From Pseudanabaena frigida (GTDB lineage: Bacteria; Cyanobacteriota; Cyanobacteriia; Pseudanabaenales; Pseudanabaenaceae), in the NCBI GenBank assembly GCA_003242085.1, contig QBML01000010.1, positions 41,983 through 105,982 of the forward strand: a DNA stretch of 64,000 bases. Reading direction: 5' to 3'. This document shows positions 1,249 to 11,623 of this stretch, piece by piece; the stretch's first letter is position 1; the number at the start of each line of letters is the position of its first letter. Below the pieces are notes generated by a model that did no database searches, was not told the DNA's origin, and saw only the letters and a list, made by a program, of their open reading frames with translations. Both the position numbers and the translations under genes were made by a program.

Positions 1249-4200
1249 TTATTTCCATTCACCCTGCAAAATAAATCCTGCCCAGTAAAATGGATTTTGC
1301 CAACGAGGATCTTTGCGAATTTCTAGTTGAGCTTTGCGGAGGGCTTGAGAGGCAGGTAATTTATCTTGAAGCATACCCTTATAAAAAAGTTTCATGAGTT
1401 CGGCAGTTGCCGCATCATCCACGCTCCACAGACTAACAACTACACTTTTGGCTCCCGCATACATAAATCCTCCAGTCAATCCAATCAGCCCTTCGCCATT
1501 AATTTCCTTGCCAAGTCCTGTACGACATCCGCTTAAGACAACTAGATCTGCCGATAACTTGAGGTTAAAAACATCGGGAGTTGATAGTAGACTACGTTGT
1601 TGGAGATCTCCACTCTCATTTAGTAGAGACAGCACCATGCCAGACCTTTCAGGGAATTTTGTATCTAGAGTGCCATGCGTTGCAAAATGAATGATGCGGT
1701 ATTGAACAACTGCTGGATCGATAGCGGCTTGCCGACTGGCGGCTGAACCAGTTAGCTGAGTAACATTGGTGGCTGGAAGGAGGCTGCTAATCTGGTCTGC
1801 TTCAATTTGCGTACTTGGTAAGCGGGGATAGAGTTGCTCGACACGAATTTCATCGAGAAGAGGTTGAGAGCCATCAGCAAGGGGAAGTTGTTTTTTAGTT
1901 GATTGTGGCTGAGAAGATTTGCTTACCATCCGATCATCTGCATAGCCAAAAACGGGATCGGCAAAGATCAGGAGCGTTTTAGATGGTGAAAGATCGCTAG
2001 GTTTGTTTTTTCTAAGTGCTGCAAATACGGATGCAGATGGGAGCATCACAATTTCATGTTGAGATATCAAAGAATCGCTTAAGGCTTGTTTATCTGGATT
2101 TAAAGTTGGACTAGGTAATGCACTGAACGGAATATATTGCAGGATGCCATCAGCAACAATTAGCAATCGCTTATTAGCTATGCGATTGGCAGCAGCCCCA
2201 AGTAACATTTGACTTAATTCCTGACCTGCTTTTGCTGCCTTTGTAGATCGCACTCGCAAACTGGGAACGGTTAAGAAGTTGTAAAAATTTCTAGCAGAAT
2301 CCTCAATGTCAGATCGTTTGGATAATTCATAGCTTTGGATATCAGTCTTGCTGACAACAAACAGATAACTGCGTTCTTCACCAAGAGAGTATTCCAATAA
2401 TACAGAATCATTATCTAGTATTTGTTGTTGGATTTCAGAAAGCTTTAAGGTACGCTCTAAACCTTTTACTCTTTTATCTGTATTACTTCTAATGGAGTTG
2501 GAATCATTGCGATTGCTACTATTAAAGAGTGCTAATAAACTTCTCCCACGCGATTGTTCGCTAACTTGTAAAGCTTGCTGTTGATGTACATTGTTAGGAT
2601 TTTGCTTGTGTAACTGCATTAACAAATCAATGTAGAAATCATAGAATTTCTTCCTCGCGGTAAAGTAAGAAGCAAGATCAACATATGACTTAAACTGCTT
2701 TCGATTGGATAGCGAAGTATCTTGTATAGGTATATCAAGAGGGAGTGGTTCAGATTCAATGATTTTGATAGCAGTCTCGATCTGTGTTATTGATCTAGCT
2801 AAATTATTCCGCGCTCTTTCTATAATTGCTATTTCAAGATGACTATCCGCTTCTTCTTTTAAATTAGCAGTCTTACGGCTAATTAATAAAGACTCGTTAA
2901 AGCTTTGAATCGATTGATTAAACTGACCTAAATCTTGTTGGATTTTACCGATTTTACCAAATATTATTGCTTTACTCTTTGGATTGTTACTAATACTTAT
3001 AGCCTTTTTATAGTACTTAATCGCTTCAAGTTTTTTATCTAAGTTTGAGAGAGCATCACCAATACCTTGTAAACTTTCCTGTAAACTTGTATTAATATTA
3101 TCGCTAGGTGATAAATTTTCTTTTGCTAACTTTTTTAAATTTGCTTCTAAGTCTTTTAATGATTGATAGAAATAGTTTAGCGATATCTCATTTTCACCAA
3201 TTTCTAAATATTGCTTGCCAAATATAGGTTTCAAACTTAAATATTTATCAGATATTTTATCTTTATCCAGAGGTTGATTTAAACTAATTTTTAAGGTTGC
3301 TTCAGAGAATCGTACAGAATTATCTAGATCCAATTTCTTGTTGGATTTAATAGTAGTAATTGAATCTTGGAACGGATCATCAATGTTGACACCAAGAAAA
3401 AAAGATGTAATTAATTGAAGTACCTCATCGACAGAAGACCTTTCTTCTCCTTTCTTTATTGAGAAATTCTCATTTGACGAATCAATTGAAGCTTGTAGAT
3501 TTTCATTTACAGAGAATATTGACTTCTGGATATTCTCACTAGATATTTGAATGTTATTTTTATTTACAGAAGGCTTTGGCTTATTGAGATTTTCTCTGGT
3601 TTTTAAAAAAAGTTCTCTAAACAAATCAATAGAAATCTGACGATTTTTATGAAATAGCTCTTTTTCACCTAAATCATAATAAAAACCAGCTTTTTGCATA
3701 TGATATAGTGCTTGAAAAAGTGCAATTTTAGATTTGTTATCATTTTGCAATAGACCAACATAGTTTTTTTTCAATGAAGATTGAACTTGGCTCAAAAGAA
3801 TTAGTGCCTGTTGATACTCTCCTAATGATTGATAAGAAGAGCTTTGTGTTGCAGGAAAAATGGAAATGTAGAATGCTAAATTATCTGATTTTCCAAAAAT
3901 CGCTAACTCATTTAGATAGGCTAGTGTGAATGCTAAATTATAAAAATCTATTGCTTTATCCAAGAAATTAAGAGACTGATAAATTCTACCAATTTTGAAT
4001 AACACATGAAATTCTATCTTTAAATCTTTTTTTGCTTTTGCCAGTATCAAGCATTCCCTATAAATTTTAAGCGCTTGCATCTTAGAATCTATGGCATCTG
4101 ATTTTGCTAGTTTTACAGCCTCATAATCTAACCTATCTAATTCATCTAAAAGTTCTATTAATTGGGGATTATTAGTATCAGCACTTTTGATTAAAGGTCT

Positions 4201-5253
4201 TTCATATTCTATTTCTGTGAAAGCTCCTGTTTTATTAGAGATTCCAACACTCCAAGATAAGAGACTGATAAATTCTTTTTCTCGAACATTAATTGTGACA
4301 ATAACTTTTCTAGGATCTGTCCCAGGAGCAAGACCTATATTCAGATCCTCCAATAGACCGAGGCTATATAGATTCTGCAAGTCTAACTGTACGGTATTTT
4401 TGTTGAAGGCTTGCCTAGGCTTAGTCTTCAGCTTTCGTACAATATACTTGTTAATAAGATTGGCTATAGTTGTACTACCGACTACTGGTGTGCCATCTTT
4501 ATTTACAGTTTTCCCTTCTTCATTGATAAAAGCATAATGAATACTTTCAATCGCACCTTCAGATATAACTAAATTAATATTGCCTTCAGGTGTGGCTTTG
4601 ATATCGATAACTTGGGCTAACACGTAGCCTTTGTCTGTATAGTACTTTTCGAGTTCTTTAACTCCAACTTGGATATTTTTAAGATTAGTAATCTTTCCAA
4701 TTTGTGATCCAAAAATGTGATTGACTACATTTTGCTCTAGTACTTGTGTACCTTGAGTTGTCACAGACTTGAGGACGGGGTTAGGCAATAAAAAGAAGGT
4801 TACACGCACACCAATATCAGTATCTTCAGGCTCAGCTTGAGCATTAGAGAAATAGCCTGTGGCAAATATGGCACTGATGTCGGCTTGTAGTTGAGTTCTC
4901 GTTACTGTTCCACCTGGTTTTGTTGCAATAATATCATAAGCTTTCTGCTCAAGGTCAGACGGTAAAGCAGGTTGACCTTTTGGAGTTTTGATTACAACTT
5001 TAGCCACTAATACTGGGACTTCAGGTTCTGCTGGGGTAGAAGTTTTTGCAGTCTCTTTCGATACTGGCTTTAGCTCACTCTTAATTTTTTCTCGAATAGC
5101 TTGAGCTTGCAAGCTAATAGATCGTGAAACATCCAATTTTTCAGCGATCGCCGATGCCCCAAACAAACCAATTACCATTTCAGATAGCGTAATGCAGAGA
5201 AAGAGAGATAGAGAATATTTAAATCTCTGAAATGGTTTGGATTGATGAAGCAT
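1249..5253 (-). CDS. Exported 3xPOTRA (Omp85-type) - TPR - CHAT (caspase-like protease) fusion protein
   Basis: Signal peptide ending ASAIA. Residues about 81-325 resemble cyanobacterial Omp85 POTRA1-3 (TRTQLQADISAIFATGYFS, GYVLAQV, DLQNLYSLGLLEDLNIGLAPGTDPRKVIV). TPR-like helices follow, then CHAT motifs IIHFATHG, LVVLSGCRTG and FYWAGFILQGEW. Confidence 0.85.
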   Translation of the reverse strand: MLHQSKPFQRFKYSLSLFLCITLSEMVIGLFGASAIAEKLDVSRSISLQAQAIREKIKSELKPVSKETAKTSTPAEPEVPVLVAKVVIKTPKGQPALPSDLEQKAYDIIATKPGGTVTRTQLQADISAIFATGYFSNAQAEPEDTDIGVRVTFFLLPNPVLKSVTTQGTQVLEQNVVNHIFGSQIGKITNLKNIQVGVKELEKYYTDKGYVLAQVIDIKATPEGNINLVISEGAIESIHYAFINEEGKTVNKDGTPVVGSTTIANLINKYIVRKLKTKPRQAFNKNTVQLDLQNLYSLGLLEDLNIGLAPGTDPRKVIVTINVREKEFISLLSWSVGISNKTGAFTEIEYERPLIKSADTNNPQLIELLDELDRLDYEAVKLAKSDAIDSKMQALKIYRECLILAKAKKDLKIEFHVLFKIGRIYQSLNFLDKAIDFYNLAFTLAYLNELAIFGKSDNLAFYISIFPATQSSSYQSLGEYQQALILLSQVQSSLKKNYVGLLQNDNKSKIALFQALYHMQKAGFYYDLGEKELFHKNRQISIDLFRELFLKTRENLNKPKPSVNKNNIQISSENIQKSIFSVNENLQASIDSSNENFSIKKGEERSSVDEVLQLITSFFLGVNIDDPFQDSITTIKSNKKLDLDNSVRFSEATLKISLNQPLDKDKISDKYLSLKPIFGKQYLEIGENEISLNYFYQSLKDLEANLKKLAKENLSPSDNINTSLQESLQGIGDALSNLDKKLEAIKYYKKAISISNNPKSKAIIFGKIGKIQQDLGQFNQSIQSFNESLLISRKTANLKEEADSHLEIAIIERARNNLARSITQIETAIKIIESEPLPLDIPIQDTSLSNRKQFKSYVDLASYFTARKKFYDFYIDLLMQLHKQNPNNVHQQQALQVSEQSRGRSLLALFNSSNRNDSNSIRSNTDKRVKGLERTLKLSEIQQQILDNDSVLLEYSLGEERSYLFVVSKTDIQSYELSKRSDIEDSARNFYNFLTVPSLRVRSTKAAKAGQELSQMLLGAAANRIANKRLLIVADGILQYIPFSALPSPTLNPDKQALSDSLISQHEIVMLPSASVFAALRKNKPSDLSPSKTLLIFADPVFGYADDRMVSKSSQPQSTKKQLPLADGSQPLLDEIRVEQLYPRLPSTQIEADQISSLLPATNVTQLTGSAASRQAAIDPAVVQYRIIHFATHGTLDTKFPERSGMVLSLLNESGDLQQRSLLSTPDVFNLKLSADLVVLSGCRTGLGKEINGEGLIGLTGGFMYAGAKSVVVSLWSVDDAATAELMKLFYKGMLQDKLPASQALRKAQLEIRKDPRWQNPFYWAGFILQGEWK

Positions 5254-5642: not shown

Positions 5643-7808
5643 TCAAATCTGATTTTGAGTTAAGGGAATATCAATCGTAAATTCTGTACCTTTCCCCACT
5701 TCTGAACTAAAAGACAACTTGCCACCATGATTTTCAGTAATGATCTGATAAGAGATTGACAAACCTAAACCCGTGCCTTTACCCACAGCTTTAGTTGTGA
5801 AGAATAAGTCAAATAAGCGCGTGCGAAGTTCTTCAGGAATTCCTTTGGCATTATCAGAAATTTTAACTGTTAAGCGATCGCCGTTTTGATCTGTCTTTTG
5901 AATTTCTGTTTGGATTGAGATTGTAGAAACTTTGCCATCTTCCCTAAACCACTCTGGTTTGTCGTCAACCATTTGCCAAACTCCATTCTCCTGAGCATCC
6001 TCTTCGAGAGCGTCGATCGCATTAGTTAAAAGATTCATAAACACTTGGTTTATCTGCCCAGCAAAACACTCCACCTCAGGGATATCACCATAAATCTTCT
6101 CAACCTGAATCTCAGGACGGCTAGGAGTCACCTTAAGCCGACTTTGTAAAATCAACAAAGTGCTATCAATTCCCTCATGAATATCAACGTACTTGCATCC
6201 AGCTTCATCACTACGCGAAAACTTATTAAGAGATTGGACGATTTTCTGAATTCGTTCCGCCCCAAGCCTGATCGAACCAATTAATTTCACAAAGTCATGG
6301 GCTATGAAATCTATATCAATTGCTTCTAACTTTTCTTGGATAGTCTCATGAGCCTCGGGGTAGCAAATACGGTAGGCTTCGATAAGATTTAATAGCTCAG
6401 CTGTGTAAGTCTCAGCATAGGAAAGATTTCCATAAATAAAATTTACAGGGTTATTAATTTCATGGGCTATGCCTGCGACTAATTGTCCGAGCCCCGACAT
6501 CTTTTCTGCTTGAATTAATTGCGATTGAGCGCTTTTAAGTTCTTGTAGAGCATGTTCTAGTTTTTCGGCTTGGAGGCGATATTTCTCTTCGGAGGCACGC
6601 ACCAAAGCTTCAGCAGCAAGGCGTTCGGTAATATCACGCAAACTCCAAACTCTACCCGCACAACTATTCAAAATATTTTGCGGTTGTGAATAGCATTCCA
6701 AAGTTCTACCATCATCTAACTCCACGATTTCAAAACTATTTTGATCGCCACCTAGTCCTTTTCCGAAATTATGCAAATGTTTGGAAGAAGTAATTCGCTG
6801 AACTACATACTTGAGAATATATGAATCATCATGGGATGTAAAAATACGATCGGGAATGCGCCAGAGATCGACAAATTTTTGATTGCAAATAATAATATTG
6901 CCGACCGCATCTAGTACTAAAATGCCATCTGCTGTTGCTTCAAGGGTCGCTCCGAGTGCGGCAAAACTTTTATTGATTTCAGCTTCTGCTGATTTGCGAT
7001 CGCGGATGTTTGTGCAAATATAAGTCGTGCCAATCACTTCCCCCGATGGGCTTTTGACAGGATTTACCCTTATACAAATTGGAATTTGCTGATTATTGCG
7101 ATCGCGCATTTCTATTTCGCTCGACCAAGTACCACCATGCATGACAGCCGTATGGATAACTTGAGCAATTTTAGGATCGGCAAATAAGGACGAAAACGTT
7201 GTTGGTCTTTGCAAAGCAGACAAGCTGTAAGAGAACAGATCGTTGAATGCAATATTTATATAGATTGGATTTCCGATGCTGTCAGTAATGCAAATAGCAT
7301 CATTAGCGCTTTCAAGAGCTGTCCCAATTTTGGTAAATGCATCTTCAATATATTTTCGCTCAGCAATTTCTTCTGCTAGCTGACGCTTCAGACTTTCTGA
7401 CTGCCGATCCCCCAAGGCATAGCTAGCAACGATGATGCCACCAGCTGAGCCATCATCTGTGTACCAAGGTTGTACGACTAACTGAAAGATGTCTGATTGG
7501 TCGCCACGCGATACAATCTCAATTTCAGTGGAGTAATGCATCTGTCCACCGATCAGACAACGTTCTAATCCATGTCGATGAACGATCGCACTCGGTAATG
7601 ATTCATAAATATTTGTCCCAATCAGCTTTAGGCGCGGGATGCCCAACATTTTGACCCAAGGCTGACTCACCAATATATAGTTCAGATCGCAATCAAACAT
7701 CGCGATCGGGACAGGGCAAAACTCAACGAACCACCGCAGATACTTTTCTGCATGGTTAGCACGCGTTGCAATAGATCCCCACTGGACTTTAGGGTTGGCT
7801 TTTGCCAT
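5643..7808 (-). CDS. Multi-PAS sensor histidine kinase
   Basis: Three PAS-like segments; H-box LVAGIAHEINNP; N-box QVFMNLLTNAIDA; G-boxes FFTTKAVGKGTGLGLSIS. Confidence 0.92.
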   Translation of the reverse strand: MAKANPKVQWGSIATRANHAEKYLRWFVEFCPVPIAMFDCDLNYILVSQPWVKMLGIPRLKLIGTNIYESLPSAIVHRHGLERCLIGGQMHYSTEIEIVSRGDQSDIFQLVVQPWYTDDGSAGGIIVASYALGDRQSESLKRQLAEEIAERKYIEDAFTKIGTALESANDAICITDSIGNPIYINIAFNDLFSYSLSALQRPTTFSSLFADPKIAQVIHTAVMHGGTWSSEIEMRDRNNQQIPICIRVNPVKSPSGEVIGTTYICTNIRDRKSAEAEINKSFAALGATLEATADGILVLDAVGNIIICNQKFVDLWRIPDRIFTSHDDSYILKYVVQRITSSKHLHNFGKGLGGDQNSFEIVELDDGRTLECYSQPQNILNSCAGRVWSLRDITERLAAEALVRASEEKYRLQAEKLEHALQELKSAQSQLIQAEKMSGLGQLVAGIAHEINNPVNFIYGNLSYAETYTAELLNLIEAYRICYPEAHETIQEKLEAIDIDFIAHDFVKLIGSIRLGAERIQKIVQSLNKFSRSDEAGCKYVDIHEGIDSTLLILQSRLKVTPSRPEIQVEKIYGDIPEVECFAGQINQVFMNLLTNAIDALEEDAQENGVWQMVDDKPEWFREDGKVSTISIQTEIQKTDQNGDRLTVKISDNAKGIPEELRTRLFDLFFTTKAVGKGTGLGLSISYQIITENHGGKLSFSSEVGKGTEFTIDIPLTQNQI

Positions 7809-8163: not shown

Positions 8164-8994
8164 CTAGTTGACTTGCTTACTGCTAGTAATATCACGCAAG
8201 GTAACTGTAAAGCCATCCCCTAATTTGACAACAATTATTTGATACCAGCTAATCGGATCCGAGGGATAGCATATTTCAGTGTTTAGTGTAATTCCCGTTT
8301 CTACGACATTAATTAATTGCTCAAATAGAACTGGGCTAAATCGTTCTAAAAATCTCCTTAATACTAATTTGCCAATTAAATCCTCTCGATTGCGATCAAA
8401 AATTCTGGCAATCACAGGGTTTACTACAAGGCAGCGAAAGTCTTCAATGCTTCCTGTGTTCGGATCTCGAACCGCTTGTAACGCAGCAATTCCATCGGAT
8501 ACGCTATTTAAAACGCTTGTGACTAGTGCTCTAGACTGATAGAGCATTTCTTCTGTCTCTTTACGTCTCGCAATTTCATCTTGTAGAGAGCGCTTATGAC
8601 GTTGAATAGCTAGCTGATTTTCTAATCGTACTAAAACTTCTTCACTCTGAAAGGGTTTAGAAATGTAATCGACCCCACCCGACCAAAATGCTTTGACTTT
8701 GTCAAAGACATCATCAAGTGCGCTGATAAAAATTATGGGGATATCGCGTAGCTCCTCATCGGCTTTAAAAGCTTGACAAACTTGATAGCCATCCATGTCT
8801 GGCATCTTAATATCTAAGATAATCACGTCAGGGCGCTTTATCTTAGCCGTTTTAAGTGCCATACGTCCATTCGTAACGCTACGAACACTATAGCCAAGTG
8901 TGAGCAGTAAATCACTTAGTAGTTGTAAGTTTTCTGGAAGATCATCTACTAAAAGAATATTTCCTGTTAGCTCAATCGAAGGGTTATAGCTCAT
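8164..8994 (-). CDS. Response regulator (REC + PAS-like, no output domain)
   Basis: ILLVDDLPEN, PDVIILDIKMPDMDG and DYISKPF, then a PAS-like segment ending GDGFTVTLRDIT. Confidence 0.9.
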   Translation of the reverse strand: MSYNPSIELTGNILLVDDLPENLQLLSDLLLTLGYSVRSVTNGRMALKTAKIKRPDVIILDIKMPDMDGYQVCQAFKADEELRDIPIIFISALDDVFDKVKAFWSGGVDYISKPFQSEEVLVRLENQLAIQRHKRSLQDEIARRKETEEMLYQSRALVTSVLNSVSDGIAALQAVRDPNTGSIEDFRCLVVNPVIARIFDRNREDLIGKLVLRRFLERFSPVLFEQLINVVETGITLNTEICYPSDPISWYQIIVVKLGDGFTVTLRDITSSKQVN

Positions 8995-9145: not shown

Positions 9146-11623
9146 TTATAGTATAGGTTCAATCAGGTCAATTAATTTCTCAAACTGAAAATTACGTGTA
9201 AGTTTAGATAGCGATCGCGCTAAAGCACTTTCTCGATCTGGGATTTCTTCAATTAGTTGCATAACGAGATTTTTATCAGCTTCTAGAGCCGATTTATACA
9301 ATTGCATGATCCATCGATCGGGCATGATTTTTAACTTTTCAGATATTAGAGACATTTCTAAATAAACGTCAATTTTTTGGTCGATTTCCTGTGTATTTTC
9401 TAAAACTTGCTCGTATACATATTTCACCCCCAGATGCTTAGCAAGGGTGTCAAAAATGATTTGTTCTCTAAATGGTTTACGGACAAAATCATCACACCCT
9501 GTTGAAAGTACGATCGCCTTTTCTTCTTCCAAGACGCTAGCTGTTAAGGCAATAACAGCCGTGGCGTTGCCTTTGGTGGTGGACTTAATGTACTGTGTCG
9601 CCTCATATCCATCCATCACAGGCATTCGCATATCCATCCAGATCAAGTGCGGCTCCCATACATCCCAAATCGCGATCGCTTCTTGCCCATTGCTAGCTTC
9701 TTTGACTTCAAAGCCCATCGGGTGGAGCAACTTTGTCAATAGTTGACAATTAACAGGCTTGTCGTCCACTACTAAGATTTTGTAGGTCGGCTGGTTGGGG
9801 GCTAGCGATAATGCACGTCTTTTATTTGTGGGATCGTTAATTGATTCCTGACCGATTTGAGCCTGAATCTGAAATTGAAAACTAGTTCCCTGTTTAAGTT
9901 CACTAGTCACGGAAATATCGCCACCCATCAATTGTACAAATTTGCGACTAATTGCTAGCCCCAAACCTGTACCTTCTTGTTTTTCTCTACCTGCCTGAGC
10001 TTGTGCAAAGGAAATAAATAAATTAGATAGCTCTTCGGGAGAAATGCCCACTCCAGTGTCACGAATTGTAAAATCTAAGATGCATTCATTAGCGTTACAG
10101 TTGGCTAATTTGCTGACATTTTTTAAATTTAAATGGACTGTCCCCACCTCCGTAAATTTAATCGCATTGCCTAATAGATTGATTAAGACTTGACGGAGCT
10201 TGACTTCATCTGTACGAATATAACGAGGTACATCATGATCGCGCTCAAATACTAAATTGATGCCACCATTAGCGGCTCGGATTTGAAACATATCCTCTAC
10301 ATCATCAAGTAAATTATAGAGATCGAAATTATGCACATTGAGTGTTGATTTGCCTGCTTCAATTTTCGATAGATCGAGTATGTTATTGATAAGTGTCAGT
10401 AGATAATCGCCGCAACGGTAAATGATGCTGGCATTTTCATAGTGTTCTGTGGGCAGATTAGTGGTTCGCAACATTAATTGTGAAAAGCCAATCACGGCAT
10501 TGAGAGGCGATCGCAGTTCATGGCTCATATTGGCGATGAAAGCACTTTTAGCTTGATTAGCCGCTTCTGCTTTTGTGGCAAGTGCTTTCGCGTTAGCTTC
10601 GCTTAGTTGTAGTTCTTGAGTGCGTTCAATTACTCGCTGTTCCAAGTCAATATTTGCTCTTTGTAAGCGCAAATTCGCTCGATCGTTTTCCGAAACAATG
10701 GCAAGTACTGACATTGTTGTAATTGCAATCACGCCCATAAAAAGCTGTAGCAATAAAACGGAGTTGCCTTCTACCGTAGATTTATAAAAAACGCCCAATT
10801 GATTGGCTGTTGCGTATGTGGCGGTCATGGAAATAAGCACGACCATGAGAGTGGTATACTTAGCCCCAAAACGAAAAGCTGACCACAGTAAGGGTGGTAG
10901 CAGTAAATATTCAATTGGTTGGTCTTTAAAAAACGAAAGATAAGAAATAACTATTAAACTGGCGATACTCGAAACTACTTCCCAATGCAGCCAAGACTTG
11001 ATCTTGTAATCCTTGGGCGATCGCAACCAAACAAAAACAAGAGGAGCAAATAGCAGAACGCTAATGGAATCACCAATCCACCAAGGAAAAAAAGCCTTGG
11101 CTAAATTGTCACTCCAAAGCTTGCTCATAAATGAGCTGTAGGAGAGTATGCCAACGATCGGCTGAAAAACAGTTCCCGTGAACATCGAACACAATGTAAA
11201 AATTACTACATGGCGAACATGGCGTAGAGGATAGTTGCTACGGGTAAAATGGAGAATTAGAGAAACTGTAATTAATGCTCCAATCGTCGAGCCAATACTT
11301 GCGCCTATGGGAGGCAATATAACTGATAATCCCCGTTTGAGATAATTGAAATAGAGTGTTCCTAAAAAAACGCCAAACCAGCGCGATCGCCCCCAACTTA
11401 ACAGCAAACCGACGACGATACCAGCCCCTGGCCAGACAGGAGAGGGAATGTTGGGGTTTTTAGGTATCGTATTGATTACTAACCAAGAGACTGAAGTATA
11501 GGCAAAAGCAATGATGAAGACTTCAATCCACCAACGAGGATTTTTGAACTCTAGACCAAATCGGGATAGAGTCCATTTTGAATCGGCAGGTATCTGGGGA
11601 AACTTTATTAGATTATTGGTCAC
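9146..11623 (-). CDS. MASE1-domain hybrid histidine kinase (MASE1-HisKA-HATPase-REC)
   Basis: Multi-TM N-terminus with SPVWPGAG, WWIGD and LLWSAFRFG; FIANMSHELRSPLN; NLLGNAIKFT; GTGLGLAIS; REC LIWMDMRMPVMDG. GTG start. Confidence 0.92.
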   Translation of the reverse strand: MTNNLIKFPQIPADSKWTLSRFGLEFKNPRWWIEVFIIAFAYTSVSWLVINTIPKNPNIPSPVWPGAGIVVGLLLSWGRSRWFGVFLGTLYFNYLKRGLSVILPPIGASIGSTIGALITVSLILHFTRSNYPLRHVRHVVIFTLCSMFTGTVFQPIVGILSYSSFMSKLWSDNLAKAFFPWWIGDSISVLLFAPLVFVWLRSPKDYKIKSWLHWEVVSSIASLIVISYLSFFKDQPIEYLLLPPLLWSAFRFGAKYTTLMVVLISMTATYATANQLGVFYKSTVEGNSVLLLQLFMGVIAITTMSVLAIVSENDRANLRLQRANIDLEQRVIERTQELQLSEANAKALATKAEAANQAKSAFIANMSHELRSPLNAVIGFSQLMLRTTNLPTEHYENASIIYRCGDYLLTLINNILDLSKIEAGKSTLNVHNFDLYNLLDDVEDMFQIRAANGGINLVFERDHDVPRYIRTDEVKLRQVLINLLGNAIKFTEVGTVHLNLKNVSKLANCNANECILDFTIRDTGVGISPEELSNLFISFAQAQAGREKQEGTGLGLAISRKFVQLMGGDISVTSELKQGTSFQFQIQAQIGQESINDPTNKRRALSLAPNQPTYKILVVDDKPVNCQLLTKLLHPMGFEVKEASNGQEAIAIWDVWEPHLIWMDMRMPVMDGYEATQYIKSTTKGNATAVIALTASVLEEEKAIVLSTGCDDFVRKPFREQIIFDTLAKHLGVKYVYEQVLENTQEIDQKIDVYLEMSLISEKLKIMPDRWIMQLYKSALEADKNLVMQLIEEIPDRESALARSLSKLTRNFQFEKLIDLIEPIL

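Follow-up and report, generated by a model that had tools for sequence, protein, structure and literature searches.

In the cyanobacterium Pseudanabaena frigida, one gene encodes a protein in which the three POTRA domains that form the periplasmic arm of Omp85/BamA proteins are joined, in the place of a beta-barrel, to TPR repeats and a CHAT caspase-like protease domain. This gene (positions 1249-5253, minus strand) lies in a window of 64,000 nt of contig QBML01000010.1, which is the stretch of DNA analysed and the reference used here; positions with no contig label refer to the window, while other positions in the same genome are given by contig (G000:C1 and so on). The POTRA-CHAT gene belongs to a conserved set of four genes, together with those for a secreted DUF928 protein, a receptor that combines CHAT and CHASE2 domains, and a small Trypco2/Pepco protein. 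It stands out by its fused BamA arm, by the repeated renewal of this arm, and by a receptor whose predicted output is a protease-Pepco death pair. The set has not been studied before and resembles an alarm system of the envelope that is connected to a suicide toxin able to form pores. According to these data, it is tentatively proposed, with a likelihood that falls slightly short of an even chance, that the protein acts in the periplasm as the input protease of a death-signalling module of four genes that spans the envelope, and in which the arm copied from BamA serves as the targeting or sensing domain.

The gene is a single unbroken open reading frame of 1334 codons, and the predicted domains of its 1334-aa product were delimited on the translation with Pfam and NCBIfam. 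A predicted Sec signal peptide occupies residues 1-37 (5143-5253, minus strand, as all parts of the gene), with cleavage expected after MLHQSKPFQRFKYSLSLFLCITLSEMVIGLFGASAIA and before EK; three K/R residues are followed by a hydrophobic window (Kyte-Doolittle 2.2) and then by AIA and the E at which the mature protein would begin. This leader is followed by a family-specific linker (residues 38-77; 5023-5142) of low model confidence (pLDDT), which is 82% identical to that of the ortholog P0003, and by POTRA1 (residues 78-160; 4774-5022), POTRA2 (residues 161-235; 4549-4773), which includes the best Pfam POTRA stretch at 160-233, and POTRA3 (residues 236-325; 4279-4548). Residues 326-352 (4198-4278) align with strands beta1-beta2 of BamA and represent a decayed relic of the Omp85 barrel. 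The remainder of the protein is made up of TPR-like helical repeats (residues 353-1007; 2233-4197), with several Pfam TPR families at residues 726-833, and of the CHAT domain (residues 1008-1331; 1261-2232). Pfam recognizes the POTRA domain three times (E 4e-18), and the CHAT match (PF12770, E 1e-66) covers profile positions 2-288 of 289. The catalytic residues are His1193 in FATHG (codon 1675-1677) and Cys1243 in LSGC (codon 1525-1527); this dyad is invariant in an alignment of 11 members and nearly invariant in 33 further ones. Judged by its sequence, this is a genuine CHAT protein with predicted protease activity. A search of PDB sequences with the CHAT half gave zero matches.

The identity of the N-terminal part has been established at the levels of sequence and modelled structure. 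Residues 78-352 match the sequences of the POTRA1-3 crystal structures of Omp85 from Anabaena (3MC8, E 1.4e-65) and Thermosynechococcus (2X8X, E 1.9e-57). An AlphaFold2 model of residues 60-560, based on an alignment of 11 sequences (mean pLDDT 82.9), shows three beta-alpha-alpha-beta-beta domains, with a pLDDT of about 90 in POTRA3, then a beta-hairpin of lower confidence that corresponds to the relic (pLDDT about 62-66), and helices only from about residue 353 onwards. The same two structures are the top Foldseek matches to the model, with template modelling (TM) scores on the target of 0.83 for 3MC8 and 0.90 for 2X8X. The first-pass annotation of this DNA, made from the letters alone, had described a signal peptide, three POTRA repeats, TPRs and a CHAT domain holding both catalytic residues, and this description turned out to be correct throughout when compared with Pfam, the PDB, the model and the predicted leader. 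Export, which that annotation also assumed, agrees with the extended start kept in the L001 ortholog and with the comparable leaders that the hydrophobicity heuristic detects in all family members, and the protein is accordingly predicted to reach the periplasm. None of the three outcomes that this annotation had named as counting against it was seen: the N-terminus is modelled as POTRA, the fusion is shared by independent assemblies, and a putative export signal is present.

In spite of this arm, the protein is not a member of the Omp85 family, because it lacks the barrel: the barrel model PF01103 finds no match in the 1334 residues. The NCBIfam models for Toc75/IAP75 (E 1.3e-33) and BamA (E 7e-19) match residues about 99-329 only, and their scores stay far under the whole-protein cut-offs, since the match is limited to the arm; this is what an arm lacking its barrel should give. 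Since there is no barrel, and the C-terminal 980 residues are TPR repeats and the CHAT domain, the protein is predicted to be soluble in the periplasm. Within the helical region, a low-complexity stretch rich in N, S and K (window about 3270-3590, residues about 555-660), where the GC content goes down to 0.28, is poorly conserved among orthologs and may be a flexible spacer. A scan for promoters and terminators was uninformative, as the number of sites was no higher than in shuffled sequence.

The junction between arm and protease could in principle be an artefact in which bamA and a CHAT gene were joined during assembly, a possibility to which we assign a practically negligible probability. 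The same order of domains, with a junction of identical type, is found on independent contigs from different samples, in P0003/P0004 (57% identity), P0014/P0015 (40%) and P0077-P0080 (31-34%), as well as in P0159 and P0182, so that orthologs come from several independent metagenome assemblies. It is also present in three named genomes, those of Calothrix brevissima NIES-22 (on plasmid 4), Tildeniella nuda and a Cyanophyceae metagenome-assembled genome (MAG; Cyano1709). In addition, the P. frigida genome holds its own complete bamA elsewhere (C1:131808-133829), whose DNA shares just 79% identity with that of the fusion arm. When residues 60-560 served as the query in an exhaustive search of 1.84 billion cluster representatives, many long proteins with N-terminal POTRA matches were returned; all of the 33 that were scanned contain POTRA domains, and 32 of them a CHAT domain as well. 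The POTRA-TPR-CHAT architecture thus exists in at least 36 clusters at 50% identity, including the four clusters known previously. No ortholog is present in any of 36 same-genus species representatives.

The protease part of these fusions has a single origin, while trees indicate that the arm has been taken from the local bamA several times. Compared with BamA of the same genome, the POTRA region exhibits 75-77% amino acid and 79% nucleotide identity, and the alignment continues into barrel strands beta1-beta2. By segment, the identity is 29% in the linker, 80% in POTRA1, 84% in POTRA2, 68% in POTRA3 and 24% in the relic, a segment in which true BamAs share 82% mutual identity. In a tree of POTRA sequences, the arms of P0001, P0003 and P0004 are sister to the BamA of this genome, inside a clade of Pseudanabaena-type BamAs (support 100/99), and the arm of P0182 is sister to BamA P0120 (100/98), with 79% identity between the two over 292 aligned residues and near-identical sequences in the POTRA domains. 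P0014 and P0015 are placed among Leptolyngbyaceae-type BamAs, with which they share an insertion in POTRA3, and two further groups of fusions stand on long, old branches. The insertion of P0014/P0015 (P0014 residues about 255-300) comprises about 30 residues with two Cys and is also found in BamA P0093; it is a derived character that marks the source of the arm independently of the tree. Overall, the POTRA tree needs at least 4-5 label changes, that is, origins of fusion arms, and a single clade of all fusions is rejected on the POTRA data (approximately unbiased test, p-AU 1e-193).

The tree of the C-terminal 450 residues shows the opposite picture, with all 14 fusions in one clade (SH-aLRT 100), where the sole other row is L010, a relative that lacks its N-terminus because the contig ends there. 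Within this CHAT clade, P0001/3/4, P0014/15 and P0159 group together, and a tree of the POTRA data in which these six are constrained to one clade is rejected (p-AU 1e-34), in a test whose six members were named after the trees had been seen. The beta1-beta2 relic is confined to this six-member sub-clade; the type of junction tracks the protease tree and the sequence of the arm tracks the local BamA. We infer that the resident bamA overwrote the arm, through gene conversion or homologous replacement, rather than that new fusions arose each time. The idea that every arm tracks its host was discarded: outside the P. frigida genome, host BamA was fetched for three genomes, and in these the arms of the Calothrix, Tildeniella and Cyanophyceae MAG fusions share no more than 42-50% identity with the arm of the host BamA. 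Between Calothrix and Tildeniella the arms are 67% identical, as would be expected if the whole gene had been transferred. Among relatives in the same TPR-CHAT clade that lack POTRA domains, the leader is followed either directly by TPRs or, in Blastocatellia/Acidobacteriota MAGs (L052, L072), by a domain of about 100 residues, rich in beta structure, which by eye resembles a pre-peptidase C-terminal (PPC) domain; these observations would fit a TPR-CHAT body that stays constant and an N-terminal module that varies.

The POTRA arm is under purifying selection. In comparison with the L001 ortholog, the ratio of nonsynonymous to synonymous substitution rates (dN/dS) is 0.22 in POTRA1-3, 0.33 in the TPR part, 0.135 in the CHAT domain and 0.64 in the relic. 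Compared with bamA of the same genome, the arm shows a dN/dS of 0.13 and a dS of about 1.3, and the copy is therefore not recent. The pattern of dN/dS, together with the absence of the gene from the 36 same-genus representatives and the copy borne on a plasmid in Calothrix brevissima NIES-22, identifies it as a functional accessory gene, with a constrained arm and a decaying barrel relic.

The POTRA-CHAT gene is a member of a conserved set, three genes of which lie side by side on the plus strand. The first of its partners encodes a secreted DUF928 protein of 299 aa (325-1224; PF06051, E 5e-51), which converges on the POTRA-CHAT gene, with the two stop codons 24 bp apart. The genome was also read upstream of the window because the window starts inside the neighbouring gene. 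This gene, whose 3' end occupies positions 2-328 and whose stop overlaps the DUF928 start, encodes in full a receptor of 857 aa (G000:C1:39737-42310). Pfam recognizes a CHAT domain (E 3.4e-21) in its N-terminal, cytoplasmic part and CHASE2 (E 4.8e-53) in its periplasmic part; a transmembrane segment separates the two, and others follow CHASE2. The His/Cys dyad of the receptor is conserved in intact orthologs. Outside the window, 22 bp upstream of the receptor gene, a Trypco2/Pepco gene (C1:39338-39715) encodes a protein of 125 aa with a Trypco2 domain (E 3.3e-18) and, after it, a charged C-terminal tail.

Where the contigs of other family members extend far enough, the set of DUF928, CHAT-CHASE2 and Trypco2 genes recurs, at L001/L002, L003 and L005/L006; the flanks of L001/L002 are shared with this genome, and those of L003 and L005/L006 are quite different. 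A short contig (L004) holds DUF928 alone, and the Calothrix and Tildeniella loci (L008, L009) hold DUF928 and CHASE2. When partners were counted with home-made profiles within 9 kb of ten fusion loci, which represent 8 distinct genes, DUF928 was found at 8/10, CHASE2 at 7/10 and Trypco2 at 5/10. Around the closest TPR-CHAT relatives without POTRA domains, DUF928 and CHASE2 occur at 13 of 77 loci, always both together. The POTRA-CHAT protein is a member of an uncharacterised class of modules in which an exported TPR-CHAT protein is accompanied by DUF928 and CHASE2. In Calothrix brevissima NIES-22 (L008, plasmid 4, 8935-16585), the module is next to transposase-like fragments, the frame of the CHASE2 receptor comprises just 433 aa and lacks the cytoplasmic CHAT part, and no Trypco2 was detected; this copy looks like a decaying or rewired module.

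DUF928 was also modelled (pLDDT 73.6). The model consists of a leader, a disordered N-terminal part with a GGxRR..C motif conserved in the family, an immunoglobulin (Ig)-like sandwich and a four-helix bundle, and the fold search with it returned only weak matches to Ig-like, carbohydrate-binding module and fn3 folds, which give no functional lead.

The P. frigida genome contains a total of 34 frames with CHAT domains and 8 DUF928 genes, and three paralogous envelope modules were found (C35:17686-28448, C22:212301-222750 and C5:193519-202944), each with a two-partner secretion (TPS) exoprotein, an exported TPR-CHAT protein and DUF928. In C35 and C22 a CHASE2 receptor, whose output is a cyclase or GGDEF domain, is present too, and C35 has a TpsB in addition; the module of C5 has a receiver-histidine kinase instead of the CHASE2 receptor. 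The possibility that the POTRA arm substitutes for a TpsA/TpsB pair was considered and is not supported, given that a TPS gene is near only 1 of the 77 closest relatives without POTRA domains and at only 1 of the 10 fusion loci; the link to TPS belongs to more distant CHAT paralogs. Nor does the protein itself look like a two-partner secretion component, as it has no PF05860 and no barrel match, and its POTRA_2 match overlaps a stronger match to the BamA type of POTRA.

The proposed function derives in good part from what has been published on the partners. Experiments have shown that Pepco, the new name of Trypco1/2, is a beta-barrel pore toxin that assembles in advance and stays latent until a neighbouring protease removes its charged C-terminal tail, and the proteases associated with it carry diverse sensors (Evans et al., bioRxiv 10.1101/2025.11.14.688446). 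The caspase-CHASE2 architecture of the receptor has been noted previously without being studied (PMC8195603, PMC2853523). In the only CHASE2 pathway characterised, that of the cyclases of S. meliloti, the input is a protein signal that a beta-barrel protein of the outer membrane passes on (PMC13001267).

On this basis, it is postulated that the POTRA arm would bind beta-strand-forming clients or the Omp85 machinery, as the arm of BamA does, and that this binding would position the protease at the outer-membrane biogenesis pathway or switch it on there, with engagement of the arm gating the CHAT protease via the TPR region. The CHAT protease would then process a periplasmic partner, most plausibly DUF928, which could be cut near its conserved basic GGxRR..C motif, and the CHASE2 domain would read the processed product. 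Inside the cell, the cytoplasmic CHAT domain of the receptor would trim the tail of Pepco, and the freed membrane pore would kill or arrest the cell. The net output would be an alarm for envelope damage or invasion with a suicide end, in keeping with a distribution of the POTRA-CHAT gene that is patchy, accessory and defence-like. The first-pass annotation had suggested a periplasmic protease in envelope surveillance or cell-contact signalling. The general idea of surveillance suits DUF928, the CHASE2 receptor and Pepco; the gene module, the very close kinship with BamA of the same genome and the re-acquisition of the arm had been missed, and for cell-contact signalling no specific support was found. 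Candidate ligands of the POTRAs include unfolded beta-barrel clients, secretion substrates, foreign proteins and BamA itself.

Several observations weigh against this signalling cascade. The POTRA-CHAT gene runs towards the other three and is therefore outside the operon of its partners; one family member (L018) has no partners within 9 kb; and the Calothrix copy adjoins a receptor that has lost its CHAT part. Gene adjacency fixes neither the order of events nor the substrates of the proposed cascade, and cleavage of DUF928 at GGxRR is a guess from a motif conserved in a low-confidence region of the model. The prediction of export comes from a hydrophobicity heuristic. For the four proteins, the models of PADLOC yield no more than trivial TPR and SAVED_CHAT hits (about E 1e-4), and a defence role is therefore deduced solely from Pepco and the distribution. 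In turn, toxicity of Pepco through cleavage of its tail is known solely for the Avs4 example from Streptomyces (bioRxiv 10.1101/2025.11.14.688446).

The explanations that compete with a signalling protease differ chiefly in what the POTRA arm binds. As in the guard model, the arm might be an integrated decoy, a bait that mimics the essential arm of BamA and is kept faithful by repeated gene conversion; a factor from a phage, predator or competitor that targets BamA would bind the bait and set off a chain from CHAT through DUF928, CHASE2 and the cytoplasmic CHAT to the Pepco suicide pore. Such a mimic would stay faithful through recurrent overwriting of the arm with resident bamA sequence (as seen for P0001/3/4, with support 100/99, and for P0182 and P0120), the identity to BamA is still 80-89% in POTRA1-2, in contrast to the divergent linker and relic, the module ends in a death effector, and the distribution is accessory and partly plasmid-borne. 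We nevertheless consider this reading unlikely, as host matching is not universal (the Calothrix, Tildeniella and Cyano1709 fusions show 42-50% identity to the host BamA arms) and no attacker is known to act on the periplasmic POTRAs of BamA. Known BamA-directed agents act on the surface loops or the lateral gate.

It is equally doubtful, in our estimation, that the protein is a housekeeping quality-control protease comparable to DegP, whose arm docks on Omp85 or captures stalled beta-barrel precursors for degradation by CHAT, with no signalling role and with the adjacency to DUF928 and CHASE2 being regulatory at most. The POTRA fold and its closeness to BamA of the same genome are in line with such a role, homotypic or partner contacts would favour an arm identical to that of the host, and the gene is probably transcribed separately from the other three. 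However, a housekeeping function is difficult to reconcile with absence from 36/36 same-genus species and with carriage on a plasmid, and the fact that DUF928, CHASE2-CHAT and Pepco stay closely linked to the gene at loci with unrelated flanks argues for a joint function. Finally, the arm could be a functionless passenger, left by a truncated bamA duplicate that was accidentally fused to an exported TPR-CHAT protease, and adding nothing to it. Decay of the barrel relic (24% identity, dN/dS 0.64) and the existence of protease relatives without POTRA domains would agree with this, but purifying selection acts on the arm (dN/dS 0.22), many of its residues are invariant in the 11 aligned members, at least 36 clusters at 50% identity retain it, and it has been renewed from bamA several times, which leaves this explanation very little credibility.

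The signalling protease proposed here shares traits with several known systems. With the cyanobacterial Omp85/BamA proteins (Alr2269 from Anabaena, PDB 3MC8/3MC9; Tlr1789 from Thermosynechococcus, PDB 2X8X; and BamA of the same genome), it has in common an N-terminal export signal, which is predicted in its case, and a periplasmic arm with the same three-POTRA fold, which is 75-77% identical to that of its own BamA. In contrast, the 16-stranded beta-barrel is missing, with just a decayed relic of 27 residues from beta1-beta2, and TPR repeats and a CHAT protease make up the C-terminal 980 residues. The exported TPR-CHAT/DUF928/CHASE2 modules, often with TpsA/TpsB and represented by the paralogs of C5, C22 and C35, likewise place a TPR-CHAT protein with a predicted signal peptide beside a secreted DUF928 and a CHASE2 receptor. 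Here, however, the protease bears a BamA POTRA arm, the locus has no TPS exoprotein or TpsB, and the output of the receptor is a cytoplasmic CHAT with Pepco, and not a cyclase, GGDEF or kinase.

A similar logic is found in DegS/RseA (the sigma-E pathway) and DegP of E. coli, where a non-catalytic domain of a periplasmic protease recognises unassembled outer-membrane proteins and a signal crosses the inner membrane. The folds are unrelated (serine protease and PDZ versus CHAT and POTRA/TPR), and the output is transcriptional, not a death effector. Csx29, from the type III-E CRISPR Craspase, is a cytoplasmic TPR-CHAT protease bound to gRAMP; TPR repeats are also followed in it by a CHAT caspase-like domain, with an activity expected to be gated by the ligand of the non-catalytic part. 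Unlike the protein described here, with its predicted export leader, Csx29 lacks a signal peptide and POTRA arm, as well as DUF928 and CHASE2. No CRISPR genes are near the locus, the neighbours being two-component genes, DUF928, CHASE2-CHAT and Trypco2.

The death modules of Pepco and a protease resemble this locus in that a small Trypco2/Pepco gene stands directly upstream of the gene for a sensor-bearing protease, a pair also present at L001, L003 and L005. They differ in that the characterised case is a cytoplasmic serine protease, Avs4, which senses a phage portal protein (bioRxiv 10.1101/2025.11.14.688446), whereas here a CHAT cysteine protease is carried on a CHASE2 receptor, with two predicted periplasmic partners. 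In the NsrA-CyaD1/CyaD2/CyaK pathway of S. meliloti, a protein signal also passes through the outer-membrane/periplasmic compartment to a CHASE2 receptor, but the relay is the beta-barrel protein NsrA and the output is cyclic AMP and not a protease and pore, with no protease, DUF928 or POTRA protein involved, according to the summary in PMC13001267.

In the literature searched, no paper was found that pairs POTRA, DUF928 or CHASE2 with the CHAT domain, and none of those listed in a looser search on POTRA and caspases mentions POTRA. POTRA arms are the client-handling part of Omp85 barrels, to which the single POTRA of FtsQ can be added. Here, an entire BamA arm is detached from any barrel and carried by a caspase-like protease, and this pairing has been rebuilt several times from the host bamA, which is a strong argument that the BamA-like binding of the arm matters. 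The partner genes, being conserved, point to a pathway that would run all the way from the compartment of outer-membrane biogenesis to a pore-forming death effector. Characterization of this pathway could reveal the function of DUF928, provide an input for the poorly understood CHASE2 sensors, and help to explain how damage to the envelope, or invasion, is linked to programmed cell death in filamentous cyanobacteria. If the arm were a decoy, the system would be a bacterial counterpart of the integrated decoys of plant NLRs and of the Toll/Spaetzle protease cascade.

Some further genes in the surroundings were noted. Upstream of the POTRA-CHAT gene and on the same strand, the window contains genes for a multi-PAS histidine kinase (5643-7808, minus), a receiver-PAS protein (8164-8994, minus) and a MASE1 hybrid kinase (9146-11623, minus). 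The PAS kinase is syntenic in L001/L002 and absent beside the module in L003 and L005, and is therefore probably not part of the module. In one sub-clade (P0078, Calothrix and Tildeniella), the POTRA-CHAT gene is followed by two small open reading frames (about 125-210 aa) with leader-like N-termini and no Pfam match (L005:11963-13210, L008:13045-14387 and L009:7075-8349), which are absent from the locus of the window. Upstream of the window, about 4 kb from the Trypco2 gene and on the minus strand (G000:C1:32971-35345), three overlapping open reading frames encode proteins of 407 aa (with a weak ATPase_2 match), 200 aa and 195 aa (both unannotated), and this trio may be another defence-like cassette.

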